DNA of 64,000 nt from a virus (taxonomy: Duplodnaviria; Caudoviricetes), in IMG/VR virus record IMGVR_UViG_3300025012_000029, positions 32,001 to 96,000 of that record. One strand, 5' to 3'. Made by a program: the position numbers and the translations under genes. Shown one piece after another: positions 58,913 through 64,000 of the stretch (positions within the stretch are counted from its first letter, which is position 1; each line of letters opens with the position of its first letter). The notes beneath the pieces are model-generated. The model had not been told where the DNA came from. It worked only from the letters and a program-made list of their open reading frames with translations, and searched no databases.

Positions 58913-61519
58913 TCAAAAAACAACACTAGCAAATCCATCTTTGTTGTCAATAGAAATAATAGAATCTACAGAATCCTTTAATACATCCAAATGAGATATG
59001 AGAATAACACATTTGAATTGAGATTTAATTACATCAAGCATACGAATAAATCCAGCCATATTGTCTTCATCTAGTGAAGTTCCTGGTTCGTCGAGAATGA
59101 ATATATCAGACTTTGGAAGCGACGATATATTGATGAATGCTAATCGAATTGCCATTGAAGCAATACATTTTTGAGCACCTGAACCCATTTCGATCGGAAG
59201 CGGCTCATTATCGTTAGGTTTTTTCATGTAGATTTCTAATCTATTATCTTCATTTTCAAAATAAACTTGAAACTCCACTATGTTTGAAAGAATTTTGGAT
59301 ATTTCATCATTAATGTTTGGCAAACTCTTCTTGATGATGTCATAAGAAATACCGCTAGGGTGCATACATTTCATAAACAAATCATATGCTTCATAATCGC
59401 TGCGCATCTTATTTAATTCTTCTTTTTCTTGAGATAATTTCTCTATTTTTTGTTCAATGAATCCGGCATTTTTATACATGTCCTTCAATTTGTTTTCACA
59501 TGATACAAAATTAGACTTATAATCCTTTAAATCTTTTTCTTTGCTTTTTCTTTCGTTTAACAAGCTTTCTATTTTATCTATCTTTTCTTTATTTTCTTTA
59601 TACTTTTGTTCTCTAGCTAAAAGATTGAAAATTTCCATTTCAACTACTTTTAAAAGCTGCAACTTAATTTCAACTTGCGGCTTTAAATTTTTTATCTCGC
59701 GAACAAACATTATCTTTTTTTCAAGAAGTAGATTATATTTTGAAATTTGTTCCTCTACTTTGGCAGTATCTAATTTCTTAATTTTATCTTGAACATCATT
59801 TTTTTCTTGCTGCTTTTTTTCAATAAGAATTTTAATAATATTAATTTGTTCTTTAGCTTCGTATGCGCCACGAATGAATTTACAATGTGAATACTCAGAA
59901 CCACATGGAACCTCTTTCAAAATAGAAACCTTTTTCAAATCATGGTCCATATCTTTTTGACTATTATCAATTTCTTTTAAAAGCAACTCTAATGCGCTTT
60001 CATGATTTGAAATTATTTCTTGTTTATCTTTCAAAGATTGAATATCAAAATTTTCAATAAATTCATCAACTCTTTTGAGTTTAGATTCACTTTCAACAAT
60101 TTTATTCTCTATCTCTAAAATTGAGTTTTTAATATTTTGAGATTCATCGTTTTTCTTTTTTAGAGAACTACGGACTACATCGATGTCAATTAGTTCATCC
60201 GGAGAAGACTCAATAATTTGAGTCAAAACAATAATTTCTTTATCAAAAATAGAAATCTTATTTCCTAAATCAGAACAAGCAATTTCACATTCGGCAATTG
60301 AATTTTTGTTTTGAACTAATTGAATTTCTGCTTGAGAAATTTCATTATCAAAATTCTTTCCCTCCAATTTCTTAATTACGGATTTAATATCAGCAGATTC
60401 TTTATTAGCTAATTCAAACTTTTCCGAAAAGAAATCTACATCAAGAAATTTAGCAAGAATTTCTTTTCTTTCTGTTGAACCTTTATCAATATAAGTTAGC
60501 GCACCAAGTTGTGAAGACATTGATGTCAGCAAGAAATCATCAAATGAACCAAAATATTTAGTTATATTCTTATCGGTTTCAATTCTATCAATGCCGTTGA
60601 GAGATTCAATTTCTCCTGTCTTCATATCCTCAACTGAAAAATCGAGATATGTTTTAGCTTCAATTGTTTCCGAGCCATGAAGTTTTTTCACATATTTTTC
60701 TGAATCTCTTTTAATAAGGAATTTCTTATTTCCAGAACGCAACGTTGCCCTTCCTGATCCAGCATTACAATCTTTATTGATTATTTTTGTCTTCTTGCGA
60801 GAGTTCTTTGTAATAGAATTAAATAAAGTATAGAGAAAACTATCTACAATGCTTGATTTTCCAGAAAAATTCTTTCCAAACACTCCTATAGTTCCACTCA
60901 AATGATTAAAATCAATCTTATTACCAGAACCATAATTAAATAAATTATCCCACTCAAAATTCAAAACTTGATAATCAACATTTCTAATCGACGATTGTTT
61001 GGATTCTGCTAACAAATTTAACTTCTTGTTAATATCAAATAATTTTTCATAAAGACATTCATCAATATGATAATCTTTGAGATATTCTCTAATCAATTTT
61101 TCTTGGACGTTGACATTTCTTAAATCTTCTTTTTTTAATATTCCATCAATAGAAACAAAAGAATTTTTGTTATCTGCTTTATTTAAAAATGTAACACTAT
61201 CTGGGTTGAACTTTGTCTTTACTACATCAATAGATTTACGAATCGTATCAATGGGTAAATTAGTTTCAGAAATAACACGTAAACGAGCGCCAATAGGAAT
61301 GTCAATATTGGGATTTAAAGAACCGTCTGGTTCCAACACTATTGAAATAAATGGATTAGGATTTGGAATAGAAATGTGTTTAACTGTAAATGTTGTTTTA
61401 TCTTGAATGTCCCAAATTAAGAAACCTTTACTATTTTCCTCACCATGGTTCTGCTGAATTAATGAACCGGACCAGCGCACTTCGGGTGTTTTACGAAATA
61501 TCTTTATTTTTTTACTCAT
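58913..61519 (-). CDS. C-terminal Mre11/SbcD fragment fused to Rad50/SbcC ATPase
   Basis: Begins WSGSLIQQNHGE...GFLIWD; GKNFSGKS Walker A, CPxC-like hook CGSEYSHC, GSGAQ signature, ILDEP, SH. Confidence 0.9.
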   Translation of the reverse strand: MSKKIKIFRKTPEVRWSGSLIQQNHGEENSKGFLIWDIQDKTTFTVKHISIPNPNPFISIVLEPDGSLNPNIDIPIGARLRVISETNLPIDTIRKSIDVVKTKFNPDSVTFLNKADNKNSFVSIDGILKKEDLRNVNVQEKLIREYLKDYHIDECLYEKLFDINKKLNLLAESKQSSIRNVDYQVLNFEWDNLFNYGSGNKIDFNHLSGTIGVFGKNFSGKSSIVDSFLYTLFNSITKNSRKKTKIINKDCNAGSGRATLRSGNKKFLIKRDSEKYVKKLHGSETIEAKTYLDFSVEDMKTGEIESLNGIDRIETDKNITKYFGSFDDFLLTSMSSQLGALTYIDKGSTERKEILAKFLDVDFFSEKFELANKESADIKSVIKKLEGKNFDNEISQAEIQLVQNKNSIAECEIACSDLGNKISIFDKEIIVLTQIIESSPDELIDIDVVRSSLKKKNDESQNIKNSILEIENKIVESESKLKRVDEFIENFDIQSLKDKQEIISNHESALELLLKEIDNSQKDMDHDLKKVSILKEVPCGSEYSHCKFIRGAYEAKEQINIIKILIEKKQQEKNDVQDKIKKLDTAKVEEQISKYNLLLEKKIMFVREIKNLKPQVEIKLQLLKVVEMEIFNLLAREQKYKENKEKIDKIESLLNERKSKEKDLKDYKSNFVSCENKLKDMYKNAGFIEQKIEKLSQEKEELNKMRSDYEAYDLFMKCMHPSGISYDIIKKSLPNINDEISKILSNIVEFQVYFENEDNRLEIYMKKPNDNEPLPIEMGSGAQKCIASMAIRLAFINISSLPKSDIFILDEPGTSLDEDNMAGFIRMLDVIKSQFKCVILISHLDVLKDSVDSIISIDNKDGFASVVF

Positions 61520-62486
61520 ATTTTTTTATACATTCTAAAAATGATTGTTCAAAATCATTTTTTAATATTTCAGTTTCCCAAAATCTTAATAAGATAAATC
61601 CACCCTTTTGTGCTAAATTATTTTTAAAAACATCATTTTCAGCATTTTTACGTTGAATATCGTTTAATATAAAGAATATATCAGGATTGGCATGCCAATA
61701 ATCTCCATCACATTCTAATAGAATTTTTTTATTAATGAAAAAATCATAAACCTTAAATTTATGACTATCATAATAAACTCTAAATGACTTTGAATAAACA
61801 ACATTATTCTTAATAAGAATATTTTCCAAAATATTTTCAATTTTAGTTGATTTTGTTCTAAACAACTCTTTTTGTCCTATTTCCCAAGAATAATTCCCAT
61901 ATCGTTCTAAACAGGTTATCTCGCATTTTTCTCTTATTTCTTCATTTTGCCAATTATGTTCAACTCCATATCTCCTAAATAAAGTTTGTTTTCTTTTTTG
62001 AATTGAAGCAGGATCCCAACCTGGTGAGTATTCATTATTTTCCTTATATTTTTGTATTCCTTTTTTAATTTTTTCTACATATTCGGCATCTTTCCACGCT
62101 TCTTTCATTATTATAGAATGCCAATCTCTTTCTTCTTTTGGAGCTTTTCTTCCATAAACAGGACTTCCTTTTCCAGAATATAATATTTTTTGATGCTCAT
62201 CCTTACATTTTCTTGAACAATATCTATTCTTTTTTGTTTTTCTTATTCTAAAAATATAACCACATAAAATACACTTCCTATTTTCTCTTTCTATTTTCTC
62301 AATTCCTCTAATATTTTCATGTTGACATTTTTCGCTACAAAAAACTTCATTTTTGGTTTTTATTCCACATATTTTACAAATATTTTTTGGCTCTTTTATA
62401 TAACCAATATTTCTACATTTCAACGAACAATAAGTTTTGTAATTCGTGTCTACTCCGCATATACGACATTTTATCATTTCATTCAC
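61512..62486 (-). CDS. free-standing Vsr-like homing endonuclease with Zn-finger repeats
   Basis: Three CxxC...[YF]CSxxC units, RYGVEH repeat, YDFFINKKILLECDGDYWH. Confidence 0.85.
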   Translation of the reverse strand: MNEMIKCRICGVDTNYKTYCSLKCRNIGYIKEPKNICKICGIKTKNEVFCSEKCQHENIRGIEKIERENRKCILCGYIFRIRKTKKNRYCSRKCKDEHQKILYSGKGSPVYGRKAPKEERDWHSIIMKEAWKDAEYVEKIKKGIQKYKENNEYSPGWDPASIQKRKQTLFRRYGVEHNWQNEEIREKCEITCLERYGNYSWEIGQKELFRTKSTKIENILENILIKNNVVYSKSFRVYYDSHKFKVYDFFINKKILLECDGDYWHANPDIFFILNDIQRKNAENDVFKNNLAQKGGFILLRFWETEILKNDFEQSFLECIKKYE

Positions 62487-62522
62487 CTTATTTTTCTCGC
62501 AAAACTATGGAGAACTATAAGA

Positions 62523-62530
62523 TAAATAGT
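62523..62530 (-). promoter_or_regulatory. putative late promoter ACTATTTA in front of the endonuclease
   Basis: Directly after the triple stop TAA TAA TGA of the Mre11 N fragment. Confidence 0.5.
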
Positions 62531-62535
62531 CATTA

Positions 62536-63189
62536 TTACACAATTTCCCATCCATTTTTCAAATATATTTCAATTTCTTTTTCATCTATTTCTATTTCTT
62601 CATAGTTTTGTTCTGATATTTGTTGATTCGACTTGTGGATGTCGCCCAACATCACATAGTCCATCTTTTTGAATATAGAAACATCATCATCGGCATTTTC
62701 CATAGTCCAACCAATATCTGTCTCACAACCACTAATTGAACCATGATAAAGAGCAATATTAATATTGTTTTCATTTGTAGGATCTATCCAATTATCTCTA
62801 TCAAAAACATTCATTACGTTTAATGTAGTGTTGTCATTAAAAGGATATTCGCCAGATTTTAAGAACAGCTCTAAATTTGGATGATTAATTGCGTTAACAA
62901 CTGGAGAAACAGCATCTAATCTATTATTATTTTTATATACTTTGTCGTGATTTCCAAGAATCAATTTAGTGGGAGCAATATTAGCCAAATTTCTGAGAAA
63001 ATCTGATGCCATTTGGACATACTCTGGTGAGATATTACACTTAGTGTGAGCCAAATCCCCACAAAATACTATCAAATCTGGTTTTTCATCTCTTAAGATA
63101 GAATACAATTTTTCAAATATATAAATGTATTCTTCGTGACGAATTGTATTTCGCAGATGCAAATCACTCAAATGGATAATTTTAACCAT
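62536..63189 (-). CDS. Mre11/SbcD nuclease N fragment
   Basis: SDLH, GDLAH, GNHD, YHG, LGDIH motifs; lacks the following GS-QQ-GE strand. Confidence 0.9.
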   Translation of the reverse strand: MVKIIHLSDLHLRNTIRHEEYIYIFEKLYSILRDEKPDLIVFCGDLAHTKCNISPEYVQMASDFLRNLANIAPTKLILGNHDKVYKNNNRLDAVSPVVNAINHPNLELFLKSGEYPFNDNTTLNVMNVFDRDNWIDPTNENNINIALYHGSISGCETDIGWTMENADDDVSIFKKMDYVMLGDIHKSNQQISEQNYEEIEIDEKEIEIYLKNGWEIV

Positions 63190-63533
63190 TACTTTTTTCT
63201 TTCTAAAGTTCGTCTTTCTCGCAATTCCCTATCTGCTCCACATTTTTTACAACAATCAAATTTATCTGAACAGGAATCACACAACGTTGGCACCGAACGA
63301 CCATATCCTTTATGTAATTCTCCACACCCCCGGCAAGTCCACTCAAATTTACTATCCACTCCCATTCCTGTGCCCCAAATATAATAACAAGCTAAACATT
63401 TGCGAACTTTAATTCTATCGTCCTTCTTTGGATCAAGTTTATAATTTTCTAATGCTTTTATTCTTCTTTCAACATCTTCTTGAGCAACGGAAGTTTGAAA
63501 TCGAAGTTGATACAAATCAAATTTTTTTGTCAT
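63189..63533 (-). CDS. small Zn-finger protein
   Basis: Four CxxC pairs in 114 aa. Confidence 0.6.
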   Translation of the reverse strand: MTKKFDLYQLRFQTSVAQEDVERRIKALENYKLDPKKDDRIKVRKCLACYYIWGTGMGVDSKFEWTCRGCGELHKGYGRSVPTLCDSCSDKFDCCKKCGADRELRERRTLERKK

Positions 63534-63539
63534 ATAAAC

Positions 63540-64000
63540 CTACTCACTTAGTGAATTAATGAGATACTCTAAATCATTATCACTATTAATCTTTAAGGCA
63601 TTTTTCTTTCTTTCGTTGAATTCTTCTTTAAGCATGCTGCCAACGTCCTTAAATAACTTAACATTTATTTTCCAAACTTCTACACCATATGATGCCAAAA
63701 GTAGCATTATTTGTTTTTCTTTTTCTTTGGCATCTGGATCTAAAGCTACAAAAACTTTTGGACAATTAGACACAATTTTCTGAAAAACATATGAATCTTC
63801 GCGCAAAGTTGAACCCAATAAAGGAATTGCGTTTCTTGCCACAATGGCATCAAAGACGCCCTCTACTATTGTAATTGGAGCATCCCAACTTATAAATAAT
63901 TCATTAAAAATAATATCTTTACTCGAAGGCGGATTCAAATATGGAACTTGATGTTCGAGATATGTTCTAGCGACAAAATAATTCACATTTCCATTCATAT
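63540..64000 (-). CDS. DNA primase, C-terminal TOPRIM part (partial)
   Basis: VEGVFDA, LLGS, ALDPD, KDVG motifs. Confidence 0.85.
   Translation of the reverse strand, partial: MNGNVNYFVARTYLEHQVPYLNPPSSKDIIFNELFISWDAPITIVEGVFDAIVARNAIPLLGSTLREDSYVFQKIVSNCPKVFVALDPDAKEKEKQIMLLLASYGVEVWKINVKLFKDVGSMLKEEFNERKKNALKINSDNDLEYLINSLSE

Follow-up and report, generated by a model that had tools for sequence, protein, structure and literature searches.

We analyzed a 64,000-nt window of phage DNA (bases 32001–96000 of the 201-kb virus record IMGVR_UViG_3300025012_000029; genome 100% complete by CheckV) in which the Mre11–Rad50 (SbcD–SbcC) gene, the sole copy in this phage genome, is divided among three successive minus-strand open reading frames (ORFs): an Mre11 N-part, an endonuclease, and an Mre11–Rad50 C-part (Table 1). 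This is the layout of a fractured gene, with two adjacent host ORFs on the same strand and a free-standing endonuclease ORF between them. All five metal-ligand motifs of the nuclease (DLH, GDLAH, GNHD, YHG, and GDIH) lie on the N-part, which ends in GDIHKSNQQI followed by a 26-residue tail and a run of stop codons. The C-part begins with MSKKIKIFRK (61490–61519), continues with TPEVRWSGSLIQQNHGE, and contributes the next core strand, the capping domain, and Rad50; its AAA_23 and SMC_N matches were under the Pfam cut-offs. An intact relative, P0262 (1050 aa), is 57% identical to the N-part over its residues 2–192 and 67% identical to the C-part over its residues 187–1048. The nearly invariant residues of the family (P0141 numbering) are D9, H11, G44-D45, H48, GNHD 78–81, H148, and GD-H 180–183, and the predicted model of the homologue P0141 matched solved Mre11/SbcD nuclease-plus-capping structures with E-values down to 4e-14. 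The non-coding spacer between the N-part and the endonuclease measures 49 nt if the latter starts at GTG 62486 and 58 nt if it starts at ATG 62477, the more likely start. All coordinates and sequence statements given for the split locus in a preliminary description of this DNA held on re-reading.

The gene is broken in a β-hairpin between nuclease motif V (GDIH) and the GS motif. At this position intact relatives read GDIHKTNQILDxxGRVRYPGSTVQQNHGE, that is, motif V, a short β-hairpin, and the GS motif, and the stretch from GDIH to GS is a plain 14–15 aa in 191 of 224 full-length relatives. The hairpin of the window is divided, with its first strand on the N-part and its returning strand on the C-part. 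Nine further loci bear a tail, an endonuclease, and a head at the same codon position, and ~44 protein clusters consist of N-parts that end directly after a tail of the form YEEIEVDExELxxYLKNGWEIV(EE). The split arrangement, which recurs across these nine loci and ~44 clusters, is not a product of chance.

The preliminary description had paired an acidic half at the end of the N-part with a basic half at the start of the C-part, and comparison of ten loci bore this out: the charges were opposite in 10 of 10, with net values of −5 to −11 for the tail and +2 to +7 for the head. Basic heads were present in all nine further loci read at the DNA level, and the consensus of the head in the loci compared was M-S/K-K-K-I-K-L/I-x-R/K-K-x-P. 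Mean pairwise identity over the ten loci was 47% for the tail, 46% for the catalytic core, and 38% for the start of the C-part. Because the tail is conserved while differing codons are used at 39% of its identical residues, the constraint acts on the protein and not on the DNA. The alternation of E-I-E-I in the tail and K-I-K-I in the head suggests neighboring strands that would share a hydrophobic face and form cross-strand salt bridges.

Tail-like and head-like segments are also found as one contiguous piece. In ~17 clusters of uninterrupted proteins, the two segments are joined by a 6–9-aa loop into an insert of ~40 aa at the hairpin tip; these host proteins are 1085–1102 aa long, or 1425 aa with an intein elsewhere, and they include a coherent clade of 1102-aa proteins. 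The tail of the window aligns with the contiguous insert of P0141, P0178, and P0217. AlphaFold2 predicted the same succession of strand, helix, and two strands, followed by the Mre11 strand, in P0141 and P0381 (Table 1), with values of the predicted local distance difference test (pLDDT) for the insert that were lower in P0141, which was modelled from a noisy MAFFT alignment, than in P0381, which was modelled from a clean one; the depressed confidence in P0141 is explained by scattering of the tails over C-part columns in its alignment. Split genes are broken in the loop that precedes the last strand of the unit. Both the alignments and the models support the reading of the tail and head as two parts of one strand–helix–strand–strand unit, a β-α-β-β arrangement that the preliminary description had proposed together with alignment to uninterrupted homologues as a check, and these ~17 clusters contain the module intact. 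The DUF4177-like pattern suggested for the unit found no backing, as three contiguous inserts and the window tail gave no Pfam match at E ≤ 10, and no family was found for the mini-domain in Pfam, protein-atlas, or Protein Data Bank (PDB) sequence searches. An unrelated 64-aa phage ORF (L013:220–411, plus strand) shares the SYLKNGWEI motif and weakly resembles DUF1737 (E = 0.02); it is possibly a distant relative of the mini-domain, or the likeness may be due to chance. Two of the insert-bearing proteins, P0388 and P0395 (1425 aa), have, besides the contiguous mini-domain, an intein of ~320 aa that bears LAGLIDADG-like motifs and interrupts motif III (GNHD); thus, two catalytic motifs have been invaded by two kinds of element in one gene family.

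Table 1. Features of the split Mre11–Rad50 locus in the window, nuclease domains at the split site in related loci, and predicted models of proteins with a contiguous insert.
Feature	Position	Strand	Details
N-part, split Mre11/SbcD nuclease	62536..63189	−	217 aa; Metallophos E = 2e-15; phrog_100, SbcD-like
Acidic tail of N-part	62539..62616	−	26 aa; strand EEIEI, helix, strand WEIV; net charge −7
Three in-frame stops in tandem, closing N-part	62530..62538	−	TAA TAA TGA
Spacer RNA hairpin	62480..62528	−	covers Shine-Dalgarno-like AAGGUG and GTG, just upstream of ATG 62477; −17.1 kcal/mol, z = −2.2
Free-standing homing endonuclease ORF	61512..62486	−	324 aa from GTG 62486; phrog_3339 E = 7e-11
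Repeated CxxC...CSxKC zinc-ribbon modules	62196..62471	−	presumed DNA-binding part
DUF7487-like central module	61800..61997	−	E = 5e-8
Vsr/DUF559-like nuclease domain	61554..61787	−	motif ECDGDYWH, later RFWE; DUF559 E = 0.008, below Pfam cut-off
Overlap of endonuclease stop and C-part ATG	61512..61519	−	8 nt; ATGAGTAA
C-part ORF	58913-61519	−	868 aa; phrog_77, SbcC-like, E = 1e-42 over residues 108-866
Basic head of C-part	61481..61519	−	MSKKIKIFRKTPE; last strand of putative split mini-domain; net charge +5
C-part after head	58913..61480	−	returning hairpin strand VRWSGSLIQQNHGE, Mre11 capping domain, fused Rad50/SbcC ATPase
Inferred mobile cassette	61481..62616	−	~1136 nt; tail, hairpin, endonuclease, head; by analogy with L019/L020
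Vsr/DUF559-like nuclease domain at split site	window, L017		
TnsA-like nuclease domain at split site	L001		
HNH nuclease domain at split site	L005, L006, L015, L018, L019		
AlphaFold2 model	P0141:1-420		strand 195-199, helix 200-208, strands 212-215 and 226-230, Mre11 strand 235-238; insert pLDDT 64-78
AlphaFold2 model	P0381:1-440		strand 215-219, helix 220-234, strands 235-238 and 246-251, Mre11 strand 256-259; insert pLDDT 93-97

On the two sides of the break, the nucleotide sequences of L019, a split locus, and L020, an intact one, show 94% and 92% identity; between these flanks 27 nt of L020 are swapped in L019 for 1014 nt that encode the tail, the spacer with its hairpin, the endonuclease, and the head (GC content of the replaced segment 32.8% versus 37.6%). 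The segment of the window that would correspond to this cassette has a GC content of 25.4%, compared to 31.6% and 29.0% for the flanking gene parts. Near-identical pairs of split and plain alleles were also found (P0011/P0116, P0026/P0131, P0008/P0074, and P0081/P0091). On trees built from the nuclease core, with the insert columns left out, alleles that bear the tail and head (clasp-bearing alleles) were scattered among plain ones. Well-supported branches alone forced at least 18 state changes, a raw count that is inflated by the selection of plain rows of the second tree as neighbors of split rows and to that extent weakens the case for movement; the approximately unbiased (AU) test, which is less affected by this selection, rejected a single clade of all clasp-bearing rows (cost of 1389 log-likelihood units, p = 3.7e-51). 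Forms with an intact insert were scattered on the tree as well, requiring at least 4 changes. Judged by these comparisons, the tail and head travel with the endonuclease between lineages. Synonymous divergence between L014 and L017, two split alleles, was 0.62 in the tail, 0.30 in the head, and 1.2–1.4 in the flanking gene parts; the underlying counts are very small, and the values hint at a more recent sharing of the cassette than of the host gene.

The endonuclease of the window combines zinc-ribbon modules, a central module, and a nuclease domain (Table 1). Its designation as Vsr-like in the preliminary description was weak when the domain was taken alone, as the DUF559 match shows. The endonuclease is homologous to the same-site endonuclease of L017 (34% identity over 235 aa including the nuclease domain, E = 1e-31), which itself matches MTES_1575 (E = 1e-6) and Vsr (E = 0.003), both below cut-offs. 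No PDB sequence match was obtained for the window endonuclease, and searches of Pfam, the protein atlas, and the PDB placed its nuclease domain in no family. Identity to the HNH-type endonuclease of L019 reached 42%, over the zinc-ribbon and central part only, and the zinc-ribbon part is common to the endonucleases of the window, L001, L005, L015, and L019. From their sequences, the nuclease domain has been swapped between loci while the zinc-ribbon and DUF7487 parts are held in common. About 13 kb ahead of the window start, in the same phage genome, a second ORF (G000:C1:18904–19461) is similar to the endonuclease over its C-terminal half (33% identity, E = 3.5e-6) and is probably, by this resemblance, another free-standing endonuclease of the same family.

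The endonuclease is also dispensable, as split loci without one occur. In L007, 12 nt separate the last tail codon from the ATG; in L008, the ORFs overlap and a Shine-Dalgarno sequence lies within tail codons; and in L014 (8049–8189, minus strand), a 115-nt spacer still codes for the final ~33 residues of a Vsr-like endonuclease, as recognized by comparison with the end of the L017 endonuclease. Because the L014 spacer retains this C-terminal deletion remnant, its endonuclease was lost after the split. The ratio of non-synonymous to synonymous substitution rates (dN/dS) between L014 and L017 was 0.10 for both the N core and the C-part; for the tail it was 0.11, a figure based on few sites (7 synonymous and 5 non-synonymous changes). 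Values of ~0.1 indicate that the split enzyme is under purifying selection and is not a remnant. Open frames are kept in split alleles across 35–57% identity, and no clean split that lacks the tail and head was found among the split alleles seen, every one of which has both.

Short N-parts of 191–192 aa were considered as a second, clasp-less kind of split, and the two that were checked, P0067 and P0035, were not clean splits. P0067 lies on a fragmented contig with 2x coverage. P0035 (L010:149–1690), from a cluster of 10 sequences, is a plain allele whose hairpin tip contains an in-frame TAA (ILDE*GRVRY) at precisely the position of a sense codon in relatives; this TAA may mark a nonsense allele, reflect a sequencing variant, or act as a read-through site. 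The C-part-like call P0344 was also rejected. Its source allele, on a TARA contig (L021:1–400), lacks ~30 codons, motif V (GDIH) among them, and has a frameshift, which represents either a truly broken Mre11–Rad50 gene or an assembly artefact.

We propose that a homing-endonuclease cassette inserted at the tip of the β-hairpin between motif V and the GS motif, where it would have replaced a few hairpin-turn codons. Read in order, the cassette would supply codons for the acidic strand–helix–strand tail, stops, a hairpin masking the ribosome-binding site of the endonuclease, the endonuclease gene, and an overlapping start followed by codons for the basic strand; the endonuclease itself is modular and joins zinc ribbons and a DUF7487 module to a Vsr-like nuclease. 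The corresponding hairpins of L006, L015, L017, and L018 are stronger (z = −3.3 to −5.9) than that of the window, and a hairpin at this place is reported for fractured genes (PMC2677866). Two polypeptides would be produced, an N-part with the metal ligands and a C-part with the next core strand, the capping domain, and Rad50, and these would reassemble non-covalently as the returning hairpin strand completed the phosphoesterase sheet. Docking of the basic head strand on the acidic tail would rebuild a small three-stranded mini-domain as a clasp, and the insertion would thereby be neutral for the phage and destructive of the endonuclease target. The comparisons show the anatomy of the locus, that tail and head are conserved and are contiguous in intact relatives, that the cassette has moved between lineages, and that both halves are under purifying selection once the endonuclease is lost; physical contact between tail and head, and a requirement of the clasp for activity, are what we infer. 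On balance, we regard this clasp mechanism as likely, if unproven, for the split Mre11–Rad50. We put forward with less assurance, as a real possibility, the broader proposal that the segments encoding tail and head are an integral and co-mobile part of the cassette, that halves of a folded domain splint the broken host protein without covalent joining, and that the unit can lose its endonuclease or re-fuse. If this proposal is true, it would be a third way, beside introns and inteins, for a selfish endonuclease to render its insertion harmless, and re-fusion or loss of the endonuclease would leave a new insert domain in the host enzyme.

Several observations weigh against the clasp mechanism. 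Intact proteins retain the insert, which may therefore serve a separate function. The C-part start of the window has no visible Shine-Dalgarno sequence upstream and the ribosome-binding site of the endonuclease is masked, so the production of sufficient C-part is hard to account for; translation of the C-part might be coupled to that of the endonuclease through the 8-nt overlap, a guess that fits poorly with the masked site. In the split NrdA of phage Aeh1, the tails are dispensable for association of the halves and are needed at a later dimerization step, the formation of a dimer of heterodimers (PMC3045599); thus, the role of the tail and head here may be other than clasping. The sequencing runs that contain this DNA are groundwater metagenomes recorded as DNA, and none is recorded as RNA.

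Some of these points suit an account in which the mini-domain is an older, lineage-specific Mre11 insert with its own role (as a contact surface, for example), inside which the endonuclease landed and which it now drags along by co-conversion; the halves would then reassemble via the native Mre11 interface, and contact between tail and head would add little. Co-conversion of flanks is normal in homing, the halves of Aeh1 NrdA associate without tails (PMC3045599), and ~17 intact clusters, including the coherent clade of 1102-aa proteins, retain the insert. However, intact-insert forms are scattered in a way (at least 4 changes) that fits repeated re-fusion as well as ancestry, both pieces are present in every split allele seen (L010 and L021 being broken alleles), and the opposite charge and conservation of the tail and head persist after the endonuclease has been lost. 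We judge this account unlikely but credible.

Joining of the halves at the covalent or RNA level by an unrecognized route, be it a split intein of tiny size or atypical form, an intron of an unusual kind, or ribosomal bypass over a long range, is very improbable, even though fractured genes of the same layout have split inteins that flank Vsr-like endonucleases (PMC2677866) and some tails begin with Ser or Cys (window, L001, P0141, and P0178). The preliminary description had reported neither intein nor intron, and we agree: intein family searches of the N-part and C-part gave no match, the Rfam intron models gave none either (the only matches, three in number, were sub-threshold and to small RNAs of unrelated kinds), and the spacer is only 49–58 nt long. 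The extras, at ~40 aa in total, are far below any intein in size and have no conserved nucleophile and no His-Asn before the GS motif; residue 1 of the tail is mostly Gln. Moreover, the insert stays unspliced in intact proteins, and a bypass would have to cross three stops and ~1 kb. It is scarcely credible that the split gene is dead, a mere remnant, and that the phage copes without Mre11–Rad50. Broken alleles do exist in metagenomes (the in-frame TAA of L010 and the motif V deletion of L021), but in the window both ORFs are intact with all catalytic motifs and make up the only copy in the genome, dN/dS between two split alleles is ~0.1 for both halves, and frames remain open across the split alleles at the identities given above.

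A DnaG/Toprim-like primase gene lies just upstream of Mre11–Rad50 in the window (63540–63998, minus strand) and in L007, L008, L011, and L020; because it keeps this place in the window and in distant relatives, the neighborhood is conserved. In the window, a Cys-rich 114-aa ORF (63189–63533) lies between the two genes. A blastn search against phage records returned a 103-nt match only, and a back-translated search of IMG/VR with the N-part gave no match.

The layout described here has been reported once before. Dassa et al. 2009 (PMC2677866) described one Lake Gatun locus from the Global Ocean Sampling (GOS) data with an SbcD-like gene that a Vsr-like endonuclease has fractured and with no intein. 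The parts of this gene have 25 extra C-terminal and 9 extra N-terminal residues that other SbcD proteins lack; a hairpin precedes the endonuclease, whose 3′ end overlaps the downstream part. With its 26-aa tail, 10–13-aa head, hairpin, and 8-nt overlap, the window resembles the published description of that locus, and from its sequence we consider it another, well supported instance of the Dassa-type intein-less SbcD split, not new in kind. That work gave one locus and assigned no role or structure to the extras. Novelty of the arrangement is not supported, since the SbcD layout with extras of 25 and 9 aa was already in PMC2677866 and essential tails were already in PMC3045599. What the present analysis adds is that the extras are two parts of one predicted folded domain that moves with the endonuclease between lineages, that the nuclease domain is exchanged between loci, and that some forms lack the endonuclease while others have apparently re-fused.

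Crona et al. 2011 (PMC3045599) found that the tails brought with mobE into Aeh1 NrdA-a/NrdA-b are essential for activity, and thus the idea of the preliminary description has direct experimental precedent; it had rightly invoked Aeh1 nrdA/mobE as a non-spliced split enzyme, though it cited the first work only. In Aeh1, mobE overlaps nrdA-b and RNA structure limits expression of the endonuclease (PMC3045599). There, as here, the break made by a free-standing endonuclease falls between adjacent β-strands in the catalytic fold of an essential enzyme, and oppositely charged tails that are absent from intact homologues stand at the break. The host enzyme differs, however, and the polarity is reversed, with a basic C-tail and an acidic N-tail in Aeh1 compared to an acidic tail and a basic head in the window. 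Aeh1 is also a single case with tails of no known fold, whereas the Mre11–Rad50 pieces form a predicted folded mini-domain with many natural variants.

The split-intein fractured genes (PMC2677866) share the gene layout, the endonuclease family, and the charge complementarity of the added pieces with the window but differ in that the host protein is rejoined by trans-splicing. Because no intein is present here, the halves must stay separate. The T4 gene 39/mobA/gene 60 locus is likewise an endonuclease-associated split of a DNA enzyme, a topoisomerase; it also uses a 50-nt ribosomal bypass, and we know of no folded split domain at this site. Tail-like extensions in T4 gene 39/mobA/gene 60 were noted by Crona et al. 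(PMC3045599).

The Mre11–Rad50 gene offers a large natural series of plain alleles, alleles split with three endonuclease types, alleles split without an endonuclease, and apparently re-fused alleles. This series suggests a route by which selfish elements could add small domains to enzymes, and the ~40-aa split unit, with a head of ~10–13 residues, could be tried as a compact non-covalent protein-complementation tag. Crona et al. predicted tails of this kind elsewhere and wrote that they "may represent a general mechanism" for neutralizing gene fragmentation (PMC3045599); because the natural series lies in one gene, their proposal can be tested both by comparison and at the bench.

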